DNA from: Alphaproteobacteria bacterium UBA6376
Lineage (GTDB): Bacteria; Pseudomonadota; Alphaproteobacteria; Rs-D84
Assembly (NCBI GenBank): GCA_002437665.1
Contig: DJQW01000001.1
Location: 65,304 to 129,303 of the forward strand
DNA length: 64,000 nt
Reading direction: 5' to 3'
In this document: positions 2,288 through 63,812 of the stretch, in pieces
Layout of the letters: every line of letters starts with the position of its first letter
How positions within the stretch are numbered: position 1 is the stretch's first letter
Notes under the pieces: model-generated
The model's database searches: none
Told to the model about the DNA's origin: nothing
What the model saw: only the letters and a program-made list of their open reading frames with translations
Position numbers and translations under genes: made by a program

Positions 2288-3193
2288 TTATAATTTATTC
2301 AGGTATGCGATGGCGTCCATGGCCGCCGTACACCCCGTTCCGACGGCGGTTGCAATCTGCATTTTTATATCGGATTCAACATCGCCGGCAACAAACATAC
2401 CGGTGGGCAACGCTGATGGGGCAATGCGCCCCATGTTGTCACGGGCGACATCTTCGGTCAGGTAATCTGTGTTGGCCTCGTGCCCGATGGCAACGAAAAT
2501 GCCGTCAACGGTGATGACATCACCGGTGGTGGTGGTTGCCGCCAAACGATCATCGGCGGTCTGTTCAATTTTAACCAAATCGGTATTAAACAGGCATTCA
2601 ATATTTTCACGTTCGGCAACGCGGCTGCGCACGATGGCCTCGGCACGGGTGAATGCACCCTTGCGATATACGATTTTTACGGTCTTGGCAATGTCAGACA
2701 GATACAACGCGTCGTTCAATGCACTGTTACCACCACCGATAACGATGACTTCTTTGTCATAGTAAAAGAATCCATCACATGTGGCGCAATACGATACGCC
2801 ATGGCCAAACAGTTCGCGCGCGCCCGCAATTTCCAATTTGCGTGGTGACGCGCCGGTGGCAATGATGACAGATTTGCCAACGTATTTTTGGCCATTGTCG
2901 CACGCGACATTAAATGCGCCGACCGCATCACCAGAAATTGTTTTGGCAGATGTGAATACAACCTCGGCCCCGAATGATGTTGCCTGATTTTTCATAAATT
3001 CCGCCAGTTCTGCGCCATTGCCGGCCCACCCTGGGTAATTTTCCAATTTGGCAATGCCCGCCATTTGACCGCCCAGTGTATCGCCACCCAGAACGATGGT
3101 CTTTTTCCCACCGCGCGCGCAATACAGTGCCGCCGTCAGCCCCGCCGGCCCCGACCCCAGAATAATCACATCATACATAACAATATCGGTCAT
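2288..3193 (-). CDS. trxB: thioredoxin-disulfide reductase
   Basis: MTDIVMYDVIILGSGPAGLTAALY FAD motif and redox-active CATCDGFFY. Start chosen at MTDIV, with a GGAAAGG RBS upstream. Confidence 0.9.
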   Translation of the reverse strand: MTDIVMYDVIILGSGPAGLTAALYCARGGKKTIVLGGDTLGGQMAGIAKLENYPGWAGNGAELAEFMKNQATSFGAEVVFTSAKTISGDAVGAFNVACDNGQKYVGKSVIIATGASPRKLEIAGARELFGHGVSYCATCDGFFYYDKEVIVIGGGNSALNDALYLSDIAKTVKIVYRKGAFTRAEAIVRSRVAERENIECLFNTDLVKIEQTADDRLAATTTTGDVITVDGIFVAIGHEANTDYLTEDVARDNMGRIAPSALPTGMFVAGDVESDIKMQIATAVGTGCTAAMDAIAYLNKL

Positions 3194-3454
3194 GATACCC
3201 TTTCCTTTTTGTACTATTATTTTCGCACAGCATAGCATAACAGCACGGCGCACGCAAATCAAAGATTATATTGATTTTGCCCTGAAATAAAATTATAATA
3301 CCCGCGTTATGTCAGATAGTTATGTATTTTTCAGTCGCACATCATCCCCGTTGGGGGAATAATTTTTGCATATTTAATTACATAAAATAATTGCGATTTA
3401 CATCGCACAACCTTATTATAAAGCACATACATAAAAACCCGAAGGATTTAGAAA

Positions 3455-8134: not shown

Positions 8135-8986
8135 ATGAAAAAAACACAACCACAAAAATCAGACATTCGTATTGCCGCCGTGACAATGGCACGCAATGAT
8201 GAATTTTTCTTGAACCGCTGGATTAAATATTACGGCGGACAAATCGGGTCTGAAAACCTGTATATCTATCTGGACGGATTGGATCAAAAAATCCCATCAG
8301 GTCACGCGAACGCCAACATAACAAAATTACCGCATCGTGACGAAGAACGCCAACGCGGGGACAAGACGCGCATATTACTGTTATCTGATTTGGCGAAAAA
8401 ATTATTCGCCGATGGTTACGATATCGTCATCGGTTGCGATTGCGATGAATTTCTGGTTGTTGACCCTGACATCAAAACAACATTGCCACAGTATTTGTCC
8501 AAAATTAAAAATCGCATAACGGTGTCCGGATTGGGTCTGGACGTTGGAATGGATTTAGAATCCGAAAGTGCATTGGATATAAACGCGCCATTTTTGACCC
8601 AGCGTAAATATGCCGTTCTGTCCACCCGCTATACCAAACCGGTTGTTTTGTTCCGTCCCCGCACATGGGGCAGCGGTTTCCACAGTGTCAAAGGCACAAA
8701 TTTCCACATTGATAAAAATCTGTATCTGTTGCATTTTGGCGGCGTGGATTTGGACATGATAAAAAATAAAATCGGCGACCGCACTGCATCATGGGGCGCG
8801 CACCTGAAAAAGCGCGCGCGCACGATTGACATTATCACACGCGCCCAAAACAAGAATCATTCAATGCGCGCCGCACGCATATTGCAAACGTTCCTGCGCC
8901 CAATTTATGATTTGAACAAGCCCGCAATGCTGGGTCTGAAATGGGTTGCAACAATCCCATCGCGTTTTGTAAAAACAGGAATATAA
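8135..8986 (+). CDS. putative glycosyltransferase (GT-A fold)
   Basis: N-terminal AAVTMARNDEFFLNRWIKYY and an acidic IVIGCDCDEF motif. Start is adjacent to the stop of the previous gene. Confidence 0.5.
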   Translation: MKKTQPQKSDIRIAAVTMARNDEFFLNRWIKYYGGQIGSENLYIYLDGLDQKIPSGHANANITKLPHRDEERQRGDKTRILLLSDLAKKLFADGYDIVIGCDCDEFLVVDPDIKTTLPQYLSKIKNRITVSGLGLDVGMDLESESALDINAPFLTQRKYAVLSTRYTKPVVLFRPRTWGSGFHSVKGTNFHIDKNLYLLHFGGVDLDMIKNKIGDRTASWGAHLKKRARTIDIITRAQNKNHSMRAARILQTFLRPIYDLNKPAMLGLKWVATIPSRFVKTGI

Positions 8987-8991
8987 CACAA

Positions 8992-9012
8992 ACGGGGCAA
9001 TGCCCCGTTTTT
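8992..9012 (+). terminator. rho-independent terminator
   Basis: acggggcaatgccccgt plus ttttt. The hairpin sequence is identical to the one at 4736. Confidence 0.6.
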
Positions 9013-9110
9013 CAAAGTTCAAATACCAAAGTTCAAAGTGCAAATAATGTGTGCGCCATTCGGCGCACTGCTTTATTCATTTGAACTTTGAACTCTGAAC
9101 TTTTAACTTT
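9012..9110. repeat. palindromic repeat element (family A: ttgaactttgaactctgaac arms around a gtgcgcc..ggcgcac core)
   Basis: Arms caaagttcaaagtgcaaataa and ttattcatttgaactttgaactctgaac around the hairpin gtgcgccattcggcgcac. Related copies at 57543, 62655 and, partially, 20089. Confidence 0.75.
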
Positions 9111-10260
9111 ATTTTATCACTTTCATTATCTGTTCTGTGATTTTGGTGGCGTCAAAGCGCGACAGATTTTCTGTGGCGACTGCTATCATTTTTTCTGTGT
9201 CCGCGCGACGCGTCCATGCGTCCATCATACGCAGCGCCAAATCCGTTGCGTCACCAGGCGCGAATAATAACCCAGCGCGTCCATCCATCAGAATCTCGCG
9301 CGGGCCATTACGACAATCCGACGCGATATTCAATGTGTTGGTGGCGGCGGCCTCTATCAATACGGTGGGCAGTCCCTCGGAATAACTAGACAATATATTC
9401 GCGCGCGCATGCGACATATACCCAAACGGATTACCCGCCGCCCCAACAAACTCTATATGACGCTGCGCCGGCAACGTACGCGCAATCTGTTCATATTCGC
9501 CGCGCATATCGCCATCGCCAACAAACACCATTTTAATATTTGGCCGCCCCGCGTTTTGCCAGAACATATCAAACCCACGCAGCACCGTTTCAATATCTTT
9601 TTCCCGCGTCATTCGCGCGACACATACGAAATAGTCACCCCGCATATATTTACCCGCCACCGCCAATTTGCGGGCACGCGCAATATCAATCGGGTTATAA
9701 ATCTGAATAATCTTGTCAGAATATTCGGGATACTTGGTACGCAATTCCGTTGCCGCGTCACGGGTCAGCATTACCAATTTATCATACATTGGCATGTACC
9801 GCATGCGGCCACCCGCATACAGCGCATCAATCGATGAATGCCACCACGTGATTTTTTTGCCACGAAATTTTTTTAATTCACGTGCGAATGAAAAATTATA
9901 GTAATCGATAAACACATCAACATCATCGAAACGATGCGATGACATCATCATATATTTACCAAATCGGTATATATCACGCGCCACGTGTTTTATAATTCGC
10001 CACAGGAAAAAGTGCGGCATCTGCGTTCCCAAAAACCGGCATGGGTACAATGCGGTCAATTTCACATCTGGATGCGCCGCAAACCAATCACGATATTGGG
10101 GAACACTGATATTCGTGTATGTTATCACACGAATGTCCACGTCCCCGCGCGCCAACAGCGCGTCAATCGTCTGAATCACCACGGATTCAACGCCACCAAC
10201 CTGCATATCACGCAGACATATCGCGATTGTTTTACGTTTCATTTTATGCAACACCCACAT
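9109..10260 (-). CDS. glycosyltransferase family 4 (GT-B fold)
   Basis: EX7E-type C-terminal motif SYSEGLPTVLIEAAA. Confidence 0.8.
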   Translation of the reverse strand: MWVLHKMKRKTIAICLRDMQVGGVESVVIQTIDALLARGDVDIRVITYTNISVPQYRDWFAAHPDVKLTALYPCRFLGTQMPHFFLWRIIKHVARDIYRFGKYMMMSSHRFDDVDVFIDYYNFSFARELKKFRGKKITWWHSSIDALYAGGRMRYMPMYDKLVMLTRDAATELRTKYPEYSDKIIQIYNPIDIARARKLAVAGKYMRGDYFVCVARMTREKDIETVLRGFDMFWQNAGRPNIKMVFVGDGDMRGEYEQIARTLPAQRHIEFVGAAGNPFGYMSHARANILSSYSEGLPTVLIEAAATNTLNIASDCRNGPREILMDGRAGLLFAPGDATDLALRMMDAWTRRADTEKMIAVATENLSRFDATKITEQIMKVIK

Positions 10261-17584: not shown

Positions 17585-17800
17585 CGCGCAACATAAATAA
17601 ACTGGATTGCCGCGCGTCGCTTGCGCTTGCTCGCAATGACAAAAATACTAATTTTCTAGAATCGCTGTCATTGCGAGTGTAACGAAGCAATCCAGTAAAT
17701 AAAAATTGTCCGCCATCGGCGGACACATTCATTGCTCTCTGCTCTCTTTATCGCGGCGCAGCGTCAGCGAAGACGGATGCGCTTTGCTCTCTAAATAAAA
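17585..17800. repeat. composite palindromic repeats (family B gtcattgcgagtg.aacgaagcaatccagtaaat, hairpin tgtccgcc..ggcggaca, family C gcgtcagcgaagacggat)
   Basis: An inverted pair aataaactggattgc...ctcgcaatgacaaaaa / ctgtcattgcgagtgtaacgaagcaatccagtaaataaaaa. The same units recur at 57478-57676 and 56612-56687. Confidence 0.75.
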
Positions 17801-18590: not shown

Positions 18591-19172
18591 ATGATTGGCA
18601 AATTGCAAGGGGTTGTTGATTATATTGGCGACGGATTCGTAATTTTAATGGTATCCGGCGTCGGATACAAGGTTTTTACCCCTGACGTACTGTCCCCACG
18701 CGAAACGGTCGCATTGTGGATTGAAACCGTCGTGCGCGAGGATTCAATCCGCCTGTACGGGTTCAAGACACTGGCGGGACAAAACCTGTTTGTGCAACTG
18801 ACGGGGGTGTCGGGCGTTGGGCCACGTGGGGCACTGTCTATATTGAACACATTGCCAACCGATACGCTGATGTCCGCGATTGCAACAGGCGACGCAAAAA
18901 CCATCACCGCCGCCCCAGGCGTCGGGAAAAAGGTTGCTGAAAAAATCATTCTGGAATTAAAGAACAAAATTGCCGGCAACGCATTTAACTTTGATGCGGC
19001 GACGGAAACCGGCGGATCTGCCCTGCCCGATTTGCTGGCGGCATTGGAATCATTGGGCTATCGCCGTCTGGACATTGTTGACATGGCACAAAAGTTGGTT
19101 GCCGCCAATCCAGATGCCGACGTCGCCCGCCTTGTTCCAATGGCACTGAAAGAAATATCTGGAAACAAATAA
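18591..19172 (+). CDS. ruvA: Holliday junction DNA helicase RuvA
   Basis: MIGKLQGVVDYIGDGFVILMVSGVGYKV N-terminus and HhH repeats. Confidence 0.92.
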   Translation: MIGKLQGVVDYIGDGFVILMVSGVGYKVFTPDVLSPRETVALWIETVVREDSIRLYGFKTLAGQNLFVQLTGVSGVGPRGALSILNTLPTDTLMSAIATGDAKTITAAPGVGKKVAEKIILELKNKIAGNAFNFDAATETGGSALPDLLAALESLGYRRLDIVDMAQKLVAANPDADVARLVPMALKEISGNK

Positions 19173-20479
19173 TGAATAATAATGATACGATTTTTGCCCT
19201 GTCATCGGGGCATGGGAAAAGCGGCGTTGCCGTTATTCGCATATCTGGCGACAACCTGCGCGATTTGTTTGCGCGAATGCTGGGGCGCGGTAATTTTGAT
19301 GCGCGCCGTACATATTTTGCAAACCTGACCGATAATGCGGGCGATTTGATTGACCAAACGATATTGGTATTCTTTGCCGCGCCACATTCATTCACCGGCA
19401 CGGACGTAATCGAAATCTATTCACATGGCGCACCGGCGGTGATAAATAAAATCTTTGACTTTCTGGGGGCGACGGGTGCACGAATGGCAACCCGTGGGGA
19501 ATTTTCGCGCCGCGCATTTCTGAACGGTAAAATGGATTTGGCGGATGTCGATGGACTGGCCGCATTACTGGACGCCCAAACAGAACGCCAGCGTCGCGCC
19601 GCACTGCAATCAATGACCGGCCGCGACAGTCGTATTTACGACACATGGCGCGCGCAGATGGTTGAAATCGCCGCATACGCCGCCGCAATTTTGGACTATG
19701 CCGATGACGAATTACCAACAAATATCGGCGAAAAAATTCGTGACAAAGCGCAAAAATTATACGACGAAATTGACAATGCAATTTCGCGCTATGCCGCGTC
19801 CCGCGCTATCCGCAGTGGTTTTAACATTACACTGGCAGGTAACACAAACGCGGGTAAATCATCGTTGTTTAACCGTCTGGTTGGTGAAAATCGTGCGATT
19901 GTTTCCGACACCCCTGGGACAACACGTGATGTTGTTTCATGCACACTGGACATCGACGGGTACATGGTAAATATTTCAGATACGGCCGGCCTGCGCGATA
20001 CAGACGATGCGATTGAACAAATCGGGATTCAGCGCACAAATGACGAAATCAAAAACGCCGATTTGATTTTGCATGTAATTGATGGTGGTCAAAGTTCAGA
20101 TTTCAAAGTTCAAAGTTCAAATAATGAAATTACCGTTATAAATAAATCAGACCTGTGTGATTGCAAAAATAAAAACGATGCAATTTATGTATCGGCAAAA
20201 ACAGGCGACGGTATTGATAACCTGATGATTGCAATTCGCCGGCGCATTACCGAATTGGTGGGCACGTCCGAATCCCAACTGACCGTCAACGCGCGCACAC
20301 GTGCATTGTTGACCGATGCTCGCACAGAATTGCACGATGCAATCGCCGCCGGTGATAACTATGATATATTTTCAGAACACGTTCGCCGCGCCGCAGACGC
20401 AATCGGCAAAATTCTGGGGACAATCACCGCATCCGATGTAATGGACGCCACATTTTCACAACTGTGTTTGGGAAAATAA
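19172..20479 (+). CDS. mnmE: tRNA modification GTPase MnmE (TrmE)
   Basis: FALSSGHGKSGVAVIRISG, G-domain motifs and a C-terminal CLGK. An in-frame repeat-derived insertion lies near the G-domain (see repeat 20089-20127). Confidence 0.92.
   Translation: MNNNDTIFALSSGHGKSGVAVIRISGDNLRDLFARMLGRGNFDARRTYFANLTDNAGDLIDQTILVFFAAPHSFTGTDVIEIYSHGAPAVINKIFDFLGATGARMATRGEFSRRAFLNGKMDLADVDGLAALLDAQTERQRRAALQSMTGRDSRIYDTWRAQMVEIAAYAAAILDYADDELPTNIGEKIRDKAQKLYDEIDNAISRYAASRAIRSGFNITLAGNTNAGKSSLFNRLVGENRAIVSDTPGTTRDVVSCTLDIDGYMVNISDTAGLRDTDDAIEQIGIQRTNDEIKNADLILHVIDGGQSSDFKVQSSNNEITVINKSDLCDCKNKNDAIYVSAKTGDGIDNLMIAIRRRITELVGTSESQLTVNARTRALLTDARTELHDAIAAGDNYDIFSEHVRRAADAIGKILGTITASDVMDATFSQLCLGK
20089..20127. 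repeat. fragment of the family-A repeat inserted in frame inside mnmE
   Basis: ttcagatttcaaagttcaaagttcaaataatg matches the arm caaagttcaaagtgcaaataatg of the element at 9012. It encodes an extra QSSDFKVQSSNNE. Confidence 0.65.
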
Positions 20480-30341: not shown

Positions 30342-33300
30342 TCATTTTAAAGACGCTATAAATCTTTTCAACTTCATTACTTCTTTATCTTTTTCTTCAA
30401 ACCAATTCGTTGACCAGATTCTATAAAACTCAAACCCAAAATGATTTTCTATCCATTTTTGCCTATGCATATCTGCTGCATATGCCTGATCTGTATTATG
30501 ATATGCCTTCCCATCGCACTCTAAAGCTACTTTATGACCGTTTACTTCTAACATAAAATCAAGTCTATACCCACCAACAGGATATTGTAAATGTATGTGT
30601 TTTTTATCTATAAATTTAAGTAATTCATTATATACTTCTTCTTCAAAAACAGATTCAGTAAGTCCCTCCATTGTTGGTTGCGACGAATCTTCAACAATCG
30701 TTGTTGTGCCACTTCTCCGTATATCGTAGCTATACTTACACAATTGACTTAATATATCTTCCACAGTTGCTTTATCACCATCAGAAACGGCTTTTGCATA
30801 TGCAATATAAGCATAAAATATGGCTGCCCTATTATTTTCATGCGACCTGTCTAACAGTTCCTTGTATGTTGAATATGCCTTTTTTGGAATGGACGTTACA
30901 ACATACAGTTTACTTTTTGCTCTTGTTATCAAAACATTTAACAATTTGTATCCATTATCTGTCAATATAGATCCAAAACGTTGATAAAACTTTCCTGATT
31001 CATCTGGCCCAAATGTAGTAGATATTATAATGATATCCTTTTCATCGCCCTGAATATTTTCTAGATTTTTAACAAAAAGCCCCGCTTGTTGCAATTTTTC
31101 AAATCTATCTTTAAAAGCTTCATCTTTATATGATGTTTCATATAACAATGTTTTTATACAATTTCTCTGATGTATATTAAATGTTGCTATTCCAACAGAT
31201 GGCATTGTGCCATCCGAATTCGGTTTTATTTCATTAAGGATAGAAATAACCTCTACTGCTTCTTTTGGATTAATGTTGCTTGCTTTTCCGGAACTATAAA
31301 TACCACTTACTTCTCTTATTTCTATTGGGTTATAATCTTTTCCAACGACTGGCAAAGGACACAAATTACCACCATAAAATGCAGCATTAGAAAAGTTGAT
31401 TAAAGCAGGATGCTTTGAACGATAATGAAAATCTAAATATGACATATTTTTATATTTTAAATTTTCTGCAAATACCAACAAGGATTCTGCATCAAGTTGT
31501 GCATTTACAAGCATATTTCCGTCTGTATTACCACCATTATTCCCGTCTAAACCAGTTTGGAAATAATTAGAAGGCGGCATTTGGTGTTGATCTCCAGCAA
31601 TTATTTTATACTTTCCTCTTATCATTGCCGTATAAACATCTTCTATTCTTAATTGACTGGCTTCGTCAAAAATAACCAAATCAAAAGACCCCTGCTCCAA
31701 TTTAAACAATGTATTAGCTACAATTGGATTTACTAAAATAACAGGGAAAATTGTCGTAAAAGAAGCAAAATCTTTATCAATAATCTGTTTTAGAGATAAC
31801 CTTTTCCCAAATTTTTGATTTTTCTTTAATGCAAATAATGCTTTAAAACCATATTTGTCATCTAACCTTGTCATTGCATTTTGTATTCTTTCGTCCCACA
31901 TACTAAATGTACGCTTCAAATTCTGCTTTTCTAAATCACTATAAATACTCTTTAACAAATTCAAATTCGTGTCGTTTTTATGAAATCTTATCTTTGTTTT
32001 TGATTCAAAATCCAACAACATATAATAATAATATGAAGCAAGAAATGTATTTTCCCAATTATCAACATTGACTGTTTCTAAGATGTCCATCAAGCTTCGA
32101 TTGGCTTTTTCAAACTTTACCCATGTGTTATAATCTTCAATTTTATCCATATTGTCTTTCAAATCAAACAAAGATGACAACACGTTATTAAACATTAATT
32201 TACACTCTTTAATATCAGAAAAATGTTGTAAATCGTCATTAATTAACGGGAACTGTTTAACAATATCGTGCTTTAAAGAATCTATACGATTTTTACAATC
32301 AATTATATTTTTATACTCATTTTTATGCTCCGCAAACGTCAAATTGCATTCAACTAACGCCTTATATGCTCCATCTAAATTTTTATATATTTTGCTTTGC
32401 TGAGACCTTACTTTTTTCTCTAAAATAGACATATCTTTTAATAACGTTTTTAAATCGATGTATTCTTTCCATTTTCCTAATTTGTTATCCAGTTCTTGAT
32501 ATTTGTTATATTGAGAAACATTTGACTGCACAGAAGCCAACAACCGTTTGATGGTTATTAAAATATCATATGCCTCAGAAACATTCTTAGAAAACAATCT
32601 ATTAAATATACCAAATTTCCCTATATCAAAATTCTCTCCCAACAAATCATTACCTTGCTTATATTTTTCCTTTATCAAGGTAATATTGTCTAAAATATTA
32701 CTTAAAAGTTGTGTTTTTTCAACAGCCGTATCATCAAAATCTATTTCAACATCAAGAGATTCTGCCTTTTCATTAAATGCACTAAATAATACATTTAAAG
32801 CTTCTATCTCATTTGGCGTTAATTCATTTTTATATAACTTTTTTATATCCTTATAAATTGGCTCTATTGACTCAAGATACGCTATCTTTTCTTCAATACA
32901 CTCTTTATTAGAAACTATTGATACGTCATTACATTCAAAATTAGATTTTTTCACATATGCATCGAACTCTTCTATAAAAGATATCGAATCGTTTAATTTT
33001 TTCTCTATTTCCTTCTTTTGCTTTATGTTTATCACATCCGCGAAATCATCAAAATCTATATATTTAAAATACGAACTATTCGTATCTTTTATATAGGAAA
33101 ACAGTAATGCTCCCTTTTTGATAATATTTAAATATTCATTTAAAGCATCTTCAGTAAACGTAAACTTAAAGTTTCCAAAATCATTCTTAGTTGATTCAAA
33201 TTCTGGATTTTTAGAAAATCTCAAATACTCACCGACTAAATCTTTCCAATTTTTCCCAGCAAAAATAGGCTTACTAGACTCTTTATACGATGCGTTAACA

Positions 33301-34631
33301 GAATCTCTAAGCTCTATAAATTGGTTATATTTTTGTTCAAAAACCCCTTCATCAAAGCCATACAAATTATGAGAATAACCATCCCCATCATATATTCTAC
33401 GTGCCTTTTCAACAATGCTTTTTCTGTCTTTTACAACATCGTCTATTACTGCACAAAAACAATCTAATTTTTTAGATTCTAAATTTTTTACAAGAACATC
33501 CAATGCTGTTTTCTTCTCGCAAACAACCAATGTCTTTGCGCCATTCGCCAACGCATTTGAAATAATTGCAGAAATAGCCTGAGATTTACCAGTTCCCGGA
33601 GGCCCTTGAATAATTTTGAACTCATCAGAATTTAATGTATCTATTATTTCTCTTTGGCTTGGGTCAACTTCAAAAGAGGTAGTTGTGCTAGTCTGAAATG
33701 GCTCAATAGTCAATTCTTCTGAATTAAATTTATCTACATTTTCTAATAATTCTCTTGTTGCTTCGATTATAGGCTCCTTTTGCGACCTAAACAATCCAAA
33801 CACACCGCTCCACTGAACCCAAGCGGTTCCACTAGTTATTTTTTCTACCTTCTCTTTATTTTCTGGACACTTTTGTAAAGAAATATTAGTTATGTCTTCT
33901 TTGATTCCTAAACCTTTATTAAGGTTATTAACATAAGCTATTATCTCATCTTCAGACAAAACCCCGTCATCCAATTCATCATTTGTTAATTTTGGTAATA
34001 CTACTTTTTCATCATTTTCTATATGCGATACCAATAATTCATTAACTTTGATAGGACTATCTTCCGTTTTTGATATAAACCACTCATTTCTTCTGTTTGA
34101 TTTTTCTATATCCAAAGACCATATAAATATTGGAGCTATGATTATTTTTTTAGGGTCTTTCTTATCCGGCTTTACTAACAGAGGATATCCAAAACCAAAA
34201 TTCTTTAAACCTGTTTCCAGATACATGTCTTCGTTATCTGCGACGATATTGTCTAACTTTCTAGAAACGTCAAACAATTTGCTCTTTTCATCTTCTGACA
34301 TTTTAGTCTGGGATTTTTCATCCCACGATATAGAAAATTTAAATTTCGGTTTTGTCAAAAGGCTTTCCAAAAAACTACCAGCAAGAGTGCTACTTTTGTT
34401 TTCTTCACCAACAGACAAATCAAACAAATCCAATCTTGTATGATTTCTACCAGGTATAGCATTAAGATGGATTGACCTACCATTTCCAACAGTTAACTTA
34501 CTAAGAAGTTTTTCTAAAAAAAACTTGTCAAATTTAATTTGTGATACAATACTCGCGCCTACCTTTTTGACATTTCTCTTTGGTGTATCAACATATTCTC
34601 TATTTGAAGGTTTTAAAAAAGTAAACGCCAT
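30342..34631 (-). CDS. DUF4011-like / Upf1-like SF1 helicase (AAA_11+AAA_12) / C-terminal DUF559 (Vsr-like PD-(D/E)XK) endonuclease fusion protein
   Basis: 1429 aa. Walker A IIQGPPGTGKSQAIS; motif II VIFDEASQL; motif III IIAGDQHQMPP; motifs V and VI QGDEKDIIIIST and LLNVLITRAKSKLYVV. C-terminus GYRLDFMLEVNGHKVALECDGKAYH (DUF559-like). N-terminal LKNFGFGYPLLVKP...IIAPIFIWSLDIEKS resembles DUF4011. Very AT-rich. Confidence 0.85.
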   Translation of the reverse strand: MAFTFLKPSNREYVDTPKRNVKKVGASIVSQIKFDKFFLEKLLSKLTVGNGRSIHLNAIPGRNHTRLDLFDLSVGEENKSSTLAGSFLESLLTKPKFKFSISWDEKSQTKMSEDEKSKLFDVSRKLDNIVADNEDMYLETGLKNFGFGYPLLVKPDKKDPKKIIIAPIFIWSLDIEKSNRRNEWFISKTEDSPIKVNELLVSHIENDEKVVLPKLTNDELDDGVLSEDEIIAYVNNLNKGLGIKEDITNISLQKCPENKEKVEKITSGTAWVQWSGVFGLFRSQKEPIIEATRELLENVDKFNSEELTIEPFQTSTTTSFEVDPSQREIIDTLNSDEFKIIQGPPGTGKSQAISAIISNALANGAKTLVVCEKKTALDVLVKNLESKKLDCFCAVIDDVVKDRKSIVEKARRIYDGDGYSHNLYGFDEGVFEQKYNQFIELRDSVNASYKESSKPIFAGKNWKDLVGEYLRFSKNPEFESTKNDFGNFKFTFTEDALNEYLNIIKKGALLFSYIKDTNSSYFKYIDFDDFADVINIKQKKEIEKKLNDSISFIEEFDAYVKKSNFECNDVSIVSNKECIEEKIAYLESIEPIYKDIKKLYKNELTPNEIEALNVLFSAFNEKAESLDVEIDFDDTAVEKTQLLSNILDNITLIKEKYKQGNDLLGENFDIGKFGIFNRLFSKNVSEAYDILITIKRLLASVQSNVSQYNKYQELDNKLGKWKEYIDLKTLLKDMSILEKKVRSQQSKIYKNLDGAYKALVECNLTFAEHKNEYKNIIDCKNRIDSLKHDIVKQFPLINDDLQHFSDIKECKLMFNNVLSSLFDLKDNMDKIEDYNTWVKFEKANRSLMDILETVNVDNWENTFLASYYYYMLLDFESKTKIRFHKNDTNLNLLKSIYSDLEKQNLKRTFSMWDERIQNAMTRLDDKYGFKALFALKKNQKFGKRLSLKQIIDKDFASFTTIFPVILVNPIVANTLFKLEQGSFDLVIFDEASQLRIEDVYTAMIRGKYKIIAGDQHQMPPSNYFQTGLDGNNGGNTDGNMLVNAQLDAESLLVFAENLKYKNMSYLDFHYRSKHPALINFSNAAFYGGNLCPLPVVGKDYNPIEIREVSGIYSSGKASNINPKEAVEVISILNEIKPNSDGTMPSVGIATFNIHQRNCIKTLLYETSYKDEAFKDRFEKLQQAGLFVKNLENIQGDEKDIIIISTTFGPDESGKFYQRFGSILTDNGYKLLNVLITRAKSKLYVVTSIPKKAYSTYKELLDRSHENNRAAIFYAYIAYAKAVSDGDKATVEDILSQLCKYSYDIRRSGTTTIVEDSSQPTMEGLTESVFEEEVYNELLKFIDKKHIHLQYPVGGYRLDFMLEVNGHKVALECDGKAYHNTDQAYAADMHRQKWIENHFGFEFYRIWSTNWFEEKDKEVMKLKRFIASLK

Positions 34632-57477: not shown

Positions 57478-57676
57478 TAGCTCTTTTGTCATTGCGAGTG
57501 CAACGAAGCAATCCAGTAAATTAAACATGTCCGCCAATGGCGGACACAAAATTTGAACTTTGAACTCTGTACTTTGAACTTTTTATCGAGACGCAGCCGC
57601 AGCGGAGACGGATTTATCACGACGGAGCGTCAGCGAAGACGGATTTATCACGACGGAGCGTCAGCGAAGACGGATT
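57478..57676. repeat. composite repeat block: family B (tgtcattgcgagtgcaacgaagcaatccagtaaat + tgtccgccaatggcggaca), family A (ttgaactttgaactctgtactttgaacttt), then tandem 31-bp family C units
   Basis: ttatcacgacggagcgtcagcgaagacggat occurs twice in tandem plus a partial third copy that ends at the ung stop codon. Confidence 0.75.
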
Positions 57677-62060: not shown

Positions 62061-62630
62061 ATGAAATTCAAATTATTGTATTTTGGTGATATTTTAATCA
62101 ATCCAAAGAAACGCTCGCAACATATTGCCGATATTCGCATGCAATTTCACCCGCAACTGAAAAAGTTGGTGGAACACCAGCCATGGAATAACCTGACGCA
62201 ATATATGGTACCCACCGCCACCAAGAGTCCAATTACAACCCGCCACGTGGGTGGTATTGACTGGAATCCAATTATCACGCCAAACCTGAAATTATTGGCG
62301 GAAATCGATATTCAAATGATGCACCCTGAAATTGTGGGTGTCCCGCGCCGCGATATTGATAACCGCGTTAAAACATTGCTGGACGGGCTGCGTTGCCCCC
62401 AGAATGAACACGAGGTTGGCGAAAACACACCTCGCGATATCGGGCCAATTTATACATTGCTGGACGACGACCATTTGATAACAAAACTGTCGGTCAACAC
62501 CAGCCACTTGCTGGGCACAGAATTATTCAGCGAAAGCATTCCGAAAACGCCTGATGCGGTGTTTATAATGTTGGACGTCAATGTCCGTGTCGCCGAAGGC
62601 ACACTGGAAAACCTGCCGTTTATGGTATAA
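62061..62630 (+). CDS. hypothetical protein
   Basis: 189-aa ORF 3 nt downstream of the previous gene, so a likely bicistronic pair. Confidence 0.4.
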   Translation: MKFKLLYFGDILINPKKRSQHIADIRMQFHPQLKKLVEHQPWNNLTQYMVPTATKSPITTRHVGGIDWNPIITPNLKLLAEIDIQMMHPEIVGVPRRDIDNRVKTLLDGLRCPQNEHEVGENTPRDIGPIYTLLDDDHLITKLSVNTSHLLGTELFSESIPKTPDAVFIMLDVNVRVAEGTLENLPFMV

Positions 62631-62632
62631 AA

Positions 62633-62655
62633 ATGCCCCACTGGGGCATTTTTAT
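62633..62655 (+). terminator. rho-independent terminator
   Basis: atgccccactggggcat hairpin plus a T-run. Confidence 0.65.
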
Positions 62656-62740
62656 TAGAGCATAGGTAATAGATAGTGCGCCGAATGGCGCACTTGCTTT
62701 ACTCATTTGAACTTTGAACTCTGTACTTTGAACTTTCTTT
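62655..62740. repeat. family-A palindromic repeat element
   Basis: gtgcgccgaatggcgcac hairpin plus the ttactcatttgaactttgaactctgtactttgaacttt arm. Confidence 0.75.
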
Positions 62741-63812
62741 ATGATAACGCTGCGGTGATTTGGTCTTGCATCTGGAATGTCCCCAGCACAACCCACGCAA
62801 TAACCGCAGATACCAGCAAGATTCCAACACTGTTCAACATATTGGAAATCGATTCAATCTTGCGTACGGATTCGTCCAGATAATCGTTTGCCACCCGCGA
62901 CAGGTTCTTGTCAAATCCATTCATATCAGCATAAATAGTCAAATCGCCAATCAGTTCTTCGTTTGGAAAATCACGCCCAGAATGCGCCAACGCCATACCT
63001 AAATTATCACCATTTGCAATATAACGCAATGTTGCGTCCAATATACTGCGCAAGTATCTGTTCGAATTGTCCGCCAACATACGCATTGCATCTGGTATTG
63101 TAATACCCGCCGCCACCATTGACGCCAACCCCATCAGCCAGCCAACCGACAACTGAATCTTGTAAATATTCCATGGCGGCAATTTATCAAAAACACGACG
63201 CAACGGGCCCGACCAGTGAGACAAACTGGCCCACACAATCAAAATCGCCGAACAGAACACAATCACAAACACATACCAGTATTTAATCGAAAATTCCGAC
63301 AGCGCAATCAACGACGCTGCCCCAGATTGCCAAACAACGGAATTACCGGCAACCTCTGCCAATGGCGGAACCAGATACAATCCAACCATAATTATTATAC
63401 CAAATGTCAACGCCAGCAAGAACAGCGGGTACGCAAATGCACCAATCATCGCACGCTTGATACGCTGTGCGCCATCAACAACGCGACTGATACTTTCCAG
63501 CGCAATCACCAAATCAGACAAATTTCCAGACGTCAGCAGCAACGTTTCATCCGCGGGCACCCAATCACGCGTCGCGTCAGAAAAACTCATACCACGTTCC
63601 AGATTTTGCTGAAATTCACGCAACGCAATGGCGAATGGTTCATTTGGCTTTGCACCATTTTTGGATTCGACCATTTCCAAACGACCCAACGCGTCCATCA
63701 ATGAAAAATCATTACGCAACAGCGACGCCAATTTGCGCGCAATCGCCATACGCTTTTCAGTGTTCAATTTGAACACGATTTTCGCATAAATCTTGTCCAG
63801 TTTGGTTGTCAT
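62739..63812 (-). CDS. type II secretion / type IV pilus platform protein (GspF/PilC family)
   Basis: Two T2SSF-like repeats and three TM segments. Start refined to MTTKLDKIY, 2 nt after the stop of the upstream ATPase gene. Confidence 0.75.
   Translation of the reverse strand: MTTKLDKIYAKIVFKLNTEKRMAIARKLASLLRNDFSLMDALGRLEMVESKNGAKPNEPFAIALREFQQNLERGMSFSDATRDWVPADETLLLTSGNLSDLVIALESISRVVDGAQRIKRAMIGAFAYPLFLLALTFGIIIMVGLYLVPPLAEVAGNSVVWQSGAASLIALSEFSIKYWYVFVIVFCSAILIVWASLSHWSGPLRRVFDKLPPWNIYKIQLSVGWLMGLASMVAAGITIPDAMRMLADNSNRYLRSILDATLRYIANGDNLGMALAHSGRDFPNEELIGDLTIYADMNGFDKNLSRVANDYLDESVRKIESISNMLNSVGILLVSAVIAWVVLGTFQMQDQITAALS

Follow-up and report, generated by a model that had tools for sequence, protein, structure and literature searches.

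A heptamer-repeat patch in the MnmE G domain of an alphaproteobacterium replaces an equally long variable loop

The DNA analysed here, referred to as the window, is a stretch of 64,000 nucleotides from contig DJQW01000001.1 of Alphaproteobacteria bacterium UBA6376. One of its open reading frames, of 435 residues, was identified as the tRNA modification GTPase gene mnmE by matches of its product to the solved MnmE/TrmE structures 1xzp (E 8e-76) and 9hip (E 2.7e-66), and the Pfam domains TrmE_N, MMR_HSR1 and MnmE_helical were found on proteins nearly identical to that product. In the window, as in the sister species, the ruvA gene directly adjoins mnmE (19172); a 380-residue peptidase_S8 gene is located between ruvA and mnmE in most other strains (L001 and L003, 8866-10008). 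The feature of interest is a patch of AAAGTTC-type heptamers that is read in frame as 11 codons of mnmE (Q307-N317, peptide QSSDFKVQSSN). The coordinates of the patch, of the neighboring G motifs and of the related elements elsewhere in the window are collected in Table 1.

Table 1. Features of mnmE and of the related repeat elements in the window.
Feature	Position	Strand	Basis or remark
mnmE (tRNA modification GTPase), intact, 435 aa, C-terminal CLGK	19172-20479	+	ORF; PDB, Pfam, AF2
G3 motif DTAG, residues 270-273	19979-19990	+	translation, alignment
Heptamer patch, 33 nt, C-AAAGTTC-AGATTTC-AAAGTTC-AAAGTTC-AAAT	20090-20122	+	the dimorphic cassette; sharp borders versus the AQSAP allele
Full arm match including AAATAATG (linker joining arm to hairpin in intergenic elements)	20089-20126	+	34/38
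G4 motif NKSD, residues 324-327	20141-20152	+	translation, alignments; patch ends 6 codons upstream
Full palindrome, left arm (4 heptamers + AAATAATG)	9012-9049	+	repeat searches
GC hairpin core GTGCGCC-ATTC-GGCGCAC	9051-9068	.	sequence; fold
Full palindrome, right arm (TTTGAAC units that complement the left arm)	9080-9110	-	repeat searches
Hairpin GTCCGCCAATGGCGGAC + one AAAGTTC-type arm (57547-57582), within a mosaic of other repeat modules	57529-57582	-	
Hairpin GTGCGCCGAATGGCGCAC + AAAGTTC-type arm (62706-62736); other flank CTATCTA/CTATGCT heptamers	62677-62736	-	

Comparison of the 38 nucleotides at 20089-20126 (TCAAAGTTCAGATTTCAAAGTTCAAAGTTCAAATAATG) with the left arm at 9012-9049 (TCAAAGTTCAAATACCAAAGTTCAAAGTGCAAATAATG) revealed 34 of 38 identical bases (89% over 38 nt), an identity to the arms that rests largely on the heptamer consensus, and no present-day arm was identical to the mnmE patch. 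A 23-mer of the patch, searched with up to three mismatches, had three matches in the window, whereas 100 dinucleotide-preserving shuffles gave none. Likewise, (AAAGTTC)x4 with up to eight substitutions was found at four window loci (9012-9110, 20084-20132, 57548-57589 and 62702-62743) and was absent from 20 shuffles. The original prediction had placed this stretch of mnmE in the same repeat family as the palindrome at 9012-9110, and the 34/38 match and the empty shuffles confirmed this assignment. Tandem Repeats Finder described 20089-20121 as a repeat of period 7 with 4.7 copies, and the other arms had 4.4-4.9 copies; the run in the patch is imperfect, since no more than two perfect units are adjacent. 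In L106, the most divergent strain, the patch reads AAAGTTC-AGAGTTC-AAAGTTC-AAAGTTC-AAATAATG and comes even closer to canonical arms, for example ...AGAGTTC-AAAGTTC-AAATAATG-TGTGCGCC, with both the AGAGTTC unit and AAATAATG present in intergenic arms. Neither the hairpin nor a complementary (TTTGAAC) arm was found in or near mnmE, which contains a single arm of 33-38 nt only. The L106 sequence (CAVGNU010000003.1) has the mnmE of this organism (GGQSSEFKVQSSNNEIIVINKSD), and its title, 'Bacteroides fragilis isolate H07647-L1_cleanbin_000047', is probably wrong.

Arms of the AAAGTTC type occurred five times at four loci in the window (both arms at 9012-9110, 57547-57582, 62706-62736 and mnmE), and all of them, the mnmE patch included, had four heptamers and then AAAT. 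The intergenic arms are joined through short linkers to an 18-nt GC hairpin, GTGCGCC-N4-GGCGCAC or GTCCGCC-N4-GGCGGAC (core consensus GYGCGCC-N4-GGCGCRC). All three intergenic window loci lie between convergent genes, right after terminator hairpins, and mnmE holds the sole in-gene copy in the 64-kb window (3 of 4 loci are intergenic). The region 9005-9115 folds with -36.1 kcal/mol (z = -6.5). A search of the window against Rfam gave four tRNAs only at the gathering score, and for 8950-9160 just generic hairpin models far under their thresholds, with no family match. A BLAST comparison of other sequences with the window revealed elements at unrelated loci that were 92-98% identical over 60-111 nt, hairpin and linkers included; because these loci are otherwise unlike, we regard the element as a genuine dispersed unit of about 110 nt. 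One arm-linker type was found in 14 stretches in a metagenome scan, all 14 loci being intergenic, and in three copies in a contig of 935 kb, and the copy number of the element appears to be small.

The partner arm is not always complementary and can be of the TTTGAAC/TTTGCAC, CTATCTATTATCTATGCTC or TGCTCTC type. In particular, at the locus after the gene at 62061-62630, the same hairpin carries AAAGTTC, AGAGAGC/TGCTCTC or AAGTGAT/ATCACTT arms depending on the strain, although the flanking protein is identical. We also observed that the spacer at this hypervariable locus (window 62630-62745; L135-L141 at about 3070-3260) ranged from 108 to 187 nt. Four Logan assemblies (L131-L134) stop 51-68 nt past the stop codon of the gene at 8135-8986; these ends fall in the left arm or the hairpin of the palindrome, and the element thus breaks short-read assembly. 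A 31-nt module (TTTATCACGACGGAGCGTCAGCGAAGACGGA) is present in 3.1 tandem copies beside the 57547 arm (57582-57676) and in one copy at 17747 (17747-17778), and in L147 (at about 5450) the same module is located between arm and hairpin. The segments 17666-17750 and 57487-57571 share an 85-nt mosaic with 81% identity, the ends of which are different heptamer types.

The original prediction stated that the fragment adds residues to MnmE, as an insertion of about 13 aa in a surface loop just before G4. The in-frame position before G4 was correct, with codons Q307-N317 ending six codons upstream of NKSD, and the loop placement agreed with the AlphaFold (AF2) model (pLDDT 86.7), in which residues 305-318 form a coil of 14 residues flanked by strands at 298-304 and 319-324. 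By standard Ras-like topology, we take the patch site to be the position of helix α3, and the model shows a predicted coil in place of this usual helix. The addition of residues, in contrast, did not survive comparison with homologs. When 152 MnmE sequences were aligned, the distance from DTAG to NKxD was 58 aa here versus 54-68 aa in 150 orthologs, most of which had 58-62 aa. Relative to the MnmE proteins of T. maritima and E. coli (1xzp and 9hip), the gaps at the patch site fell in the query, which is shorter there than the solved structures. The syntenic sister species, whose protein is 64% identical, has PIDTPTAVAPD at the site and no heptamer arrays in 21 kb, and more distant relatives have SQAAQLMPQDNE or AQPNDAAPAENE; protein searches yielded no relatives between 94% and 64% identity. 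No target-site duplication was visible at the mnmE patch. An ortholog segment of the same length had been named beforehand as the observation that would speak against an insertion, and such segments were found in the ortholog alignment, in the sister species and in a second allele of the species itself, AQSAP. Because there is no net gain in length and orthologs have a segment of the same length, the mnmE patch cannot count as a net insertion. It takes the place of a variable loop of equal length and is not an insertion of the Rickettsia style.

This second allele was found among 120 relatives of 94-99% identity. The heptamer allele, in variants of QSSDFKVQSSN, was present in 115 of them, and the remaining five had AQSAPTTTTTQ, which is of equal length, free of heptamers and found in strains that are 94-95% identical. 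The two 33-nt alleles (CAAAATTCAGATTTCAAAGTTCAAAGTTCAAAT and GCACAGAGCGCGCCCACCACCACAACCACACAA) meet identical flanks (GATGGC and AATGAAATTAC) at a sharp boundary, with no excess divergence nearby. The peptide of the 11-codon patch had more than 20 variants among the strains, and the frame was intact in 120 of 120 relatives, the sole length variant being a 3-nt GGT that gives one extra codon. The AQSAP allele is rich in A, P, T and Q and is compositionally like the outgroups. In a neighbor-joining tree, the deepest strains carried the heptamer allele and the AQSAP alleles were scattered inside the tree, probably by recombination of alleles; AQSAP could be a newer allele, or an old polymorphism that was moved by recombination. 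Given this scatter and the deep heptamer branches, recombination is likely, and either allele may have been the one replaced. A search for a donor of the AQSAP allele, using 14-mers of GGCGCACAGAGCGCGCCCACCACCACAACCACACAAAATGAA with one mismatch against the window and 20 loci of the species and its sister, gave chance matches only. As both alleles still segregate within one species, they allow a direct test of how the patch affects the protein.

Arrays of the same heptamer were also found far outside this organism. A scan for TTTGAACTTTGAACTYTG, with one genome per species, returned at least 120 rows, and the matches listed came from Acidobacteriota, Verrucomicrobiota, Bacteroidota, Planctomycetota, Cyanobacteria, Chloroflexota, Patescibacteria and others, with L106 as the sole locus of this organism among them. 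Among the matches listed, 37 of 132 arrays had an inverted partner within 200 nt, and 36 of 132 were sense-oriented inside long open reading frames. All ten of the reading frames tested were genuine housekeeping genes, namely LeuRS (four times), UvrA, UppS, KdtA, RecJ, Ddl and AroA. Measured against solved homologs, the net length change was 0 aa in UppS (L024), +3 aa in KdtA (L124), +2 to +3 aa in RecJ (L085), about +7 aa in Ddl (L050), +16 aa in UvrA (L095) and +31 aa in AroA (L100). MnmE, UppS, KdtA and RecJ had suggested a rule that arrays always overwrite and leave the length unchanged, and Ddl, UvrA and AroA ruled it out. In the AroA gene of the Anaerolineae MAG M42_99 (L100, 1970-3349), the in-frame segment of about 31 aa is a complete unit in which two arrays flank a GC hairpin (CCGCACCCG-TCCT-CGGGTGCGG). 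AAAGTTC arrays in frame in core genes across phyla appear to be a previously undescribed variant among known repeat classes, and the same appears to hold for the hairpin with interchangeable heptamer arms.

Several smaller observations were made in the same material. A second gene with an in-frame array is present in MAG M42_99 (L086). The four LeuRS arrays (L064, L073, L118 and L010) each occupy a different position in the protein and come from unrelated lineages: two Pyrinomonadaceae, one Patescibacteria and one Verrucomicrobiae. In viral (phage) contigs, the TTTGAAC array was counted 66 times, and three control arrays built of heptamers with the same base composition were counted 18, 0 and 17 times. 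As control arrays are also present in viral contigs, TTTGAAC was rejected as a unique unit; because they are rarer, it is a favored one. The co-occurring heptamer variants mostly follow the pattern T-Y-T-G-N-N-C (TTTGAAC, TTTGGAC, TTTGAGC, TTTGCTC, TCTGCTC, TTTGTAC and TTTGCAC; L006-L125 and window arms), and the local TGCTCTC type is the same pattern in another register.

From the mnmE comparisons, we consider it reasonably probable that the patch is an arm of the hairpin-plus-heptamer element of this organism that was copied into mnmE over the variable loop and is carried as a tolerated passenger. The arm, with its four AAAGTTC units and AAAT, would have overwritten the poorly conserved β4-β5 linker of the G domain, most likely in one ectopic template switch or short-patch conversion, and the microhomology CAAA..AATG common to both sequences at the 3' junction may have been the exit point. 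At the 3' junction, the arm (CAAATAATG) has sequence in common with the alternative allele (CAAAATG), and this is compatible with a template switch or short-patch conversion guided by microhomology. Because there is no TTTGAAC template near mnmE, the template would be ectopic. That a whole arm was copied into mnmE, rather than built there by slippage, is indicated by the number of units together with the variant unit and the linker. There is precedent in the in-frame arrays of LeuRS, UvrA, UppS, KdtA, RecJ, Ddl and AroA in other phyla, and the array in UppS is likewise length-neutral. A simple template switch does not predict a 33-for-33 exchange, which has to be either coincidence or selection on loop length.

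On its sense strand, (AAAGTTC)n contains no stop codon in any of the three frames and gives the hydrophilic peptide repeat KVQSSKF, and the complementary strand has TGA in every frame. The survival of the patch would be explained by these open sense frames, the hydrophilic peptide and a 14-residue surface coil of unchanged length. The patch would have no function of its own; it would have spread to about 96% of the sampled strains and may now be drifting by point mutation.

Three other accounts of the patch were weighed against copying of an arm. Slippage in place, starting from a chance AAAGTTC-like seed in mnmE and independent of the intergenic elements, is unlikely. It would draw on the abundance of such repeats, since heptamers are the most over-represented repeats in many bacteria and four units are commonest in Xanthomonas, according to PMC4692102 and to PMC4679880 (citing Mrazek 2007), and on the (TTTGAAC)n arrays that occur in phage contigs and across many unrelated phyla. 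Steps of 7 nt, however, lengthen and frameshift an essential gene, and the length of mnmE is unchanged; the patch also shares with the local elements the four-unit count, the AGAGTTC variant (in L106) and the AAATAATG linker, and its boundary with the other allele is sharp rather than graded. We regard as very unlikely the account of the original prediction, in which a mobile palindromic element of the RPE kind (Rickettsia palindromic element) was inserted in frame and added about 13 residues to the surface loop of MnmE. The patch does belong to a dispersed palindromic family and is in frame in a surface coil, and true in-frame insertions are found in other phyla, of +16 aa in UvrA and +31 aa in AroA (array, hairpin, array). 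Against this, MnmE has no net gain in length, near-identical strains have an unrelated allele of equal length, the copy consists of one arm without hairpin or second arm, no target-site duplication is visible, and the family seems small, with mnmE as its sole in-gene copy in 64 kb.

Scarcely credible is the view that the patch is selected, either as a phase-variation switch that works by gain and loss of 7 nt or as a functional variant of the G-domain surface. Contingency loci are classically built from a coding repeat whose unit length is not divisible by three (PMC3315296), heptanucleotide phase variation has been described (PMC8262952), and two alleles persist in the species. However, 120 of 120 relatives are in frame and differ in length by one 3-nt GGT codon at most, the run is imperfect with two perfect adjacent units only, mnmE is a housekeeping gene, and the residues of the patch vary freely between strains. 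A wider reading concerns the other phyla: GC hairpins with TTTGNNC-type arrays would be a small cross-phylum mobile element that colonizes essential genes in frame as KVQSSKF-type loops, an RPE-like behavior outside Rickettsia. The in-frame arrays in MnmE, LeuRS (four times), UvrA, RecJ, UppS, KdtA and Ddl, and the whole unit in the Anaerolineae AroA, are consistent with this reading, which we nevertheless hold to be doubtful. If it were true, the swappable arm types at one locus would mean that arrays are actively rebuilt around the hairpin and are not drifting.

With copying of an arm as the preferred account of the mnmE patch, the family can be compared with known repeat systems. RPEs are about 150 bp long, are inserted whole, encode a conserved peptide of tens of residues and are very frequent, with 44 in-gene copies in R. 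conorii (reviewed in PMC10969869). The likeness to them lies in a dispersed palindromic repeat that is translated in frame in essential genes at tolerant surface sites (PMC10969869). In contrast to RPEs, the mnmE patch is a 33-nt arm only with no net gain in length, one in-gene copy was seen among the four loci in the 64-kb window, the arms are 7-nt tandem repeats without a conserved long consensus, and the host is apparently an uncultured gut bacterium and not Rickettsia. The suggestion of an RPE-like family therefore holds for a dispersed palindromic element (92-98% identity over 60-111 nt), but not for its build from 7-nt tandem arms of strain-variable type, and an RPE-like insertion into the gene does not agree with a single 33-nt arm that lacks the hairpin and the second arm.

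Heptameric repeats described previously include TAACTGA in Beggiatoaceae, cyanobacteria and Bacteroidetes, GGGAATC in Xanthomonas, and GGGGAYT and STRR in Nostoc and Calothrix (PMC4679880, PMC4692102). They typically have 2-6 copies, most commonly four, are mostly intergenic with some inverted pairs, and vary between close strains; a few are found in open reading frames, and then only in the stop-free orientation (PMC4679880, PMC4692102). Heptamer over-representation, the four-unit mode, inverted pairs, strain variability and copies within reading frames are thus already described (PMC4692102, PMC4679880). The arms reported here are similar in their 7-nt tandem units, their 4.4-4.9 copies, their mostly intergenic location and their strain variability. 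They differ in the unit itself (AAAGTTC/TTTGAAC), in that a GC hairpin accompanies the arrays and is dispersed with them as a unit of about 110 nt at 92-98% identity rather than by local slippage, and in that one array replaces coding sequence of an essential gene.

Elements of the REP/BIME type share with the intergenic copies an imperfect GC-rich hairpin of about 18 nt after stop codons or terminators, between convergent genes, and an arrangement in mosaics with short linker motifs; REPs, however, lack heptamer arrays and are typically far more numerous, and the mnmE patch is free of a hairpin. The mnmE dimorphism also resembles template-switch (quasi-palindrome) mutation in that a cluster of changes is sharply bounded and the length is kept, although classical events use a nearby inverted repeat and there is none (TTTGAAC) near mnmE. 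For mnmE itself the patch probably has little consequence; MnmE is intact and the loop would be harmless. It is a clean natural example of repeat DNA written over coding sequence with the length unchanged, and it points to an undescribed association of a GC hairpin with heptamer arrays. The presence of AAAGTTC in frame in core enzymes of many phyla could help explain the over-representation of 7-nt repeats in bacteria, a question that dates from 2007.

Two further features of the window were observed. At 2062-2301 there are separate direct and inverted repeats (GAATAAATTAGAATGGTGGTA..ATGCG.GAGGCGGGTTGCGTAGTGT) in 2-3 copies with arms that are 80-94% complementary, and these are unrelated to the heptamer family. 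A 1429-residue open reading frame on the minus strand (30342-34631) has a GC content of 33-41% versus about 45-49% elsewhere in the window, and this stretch may be foreign DNA.
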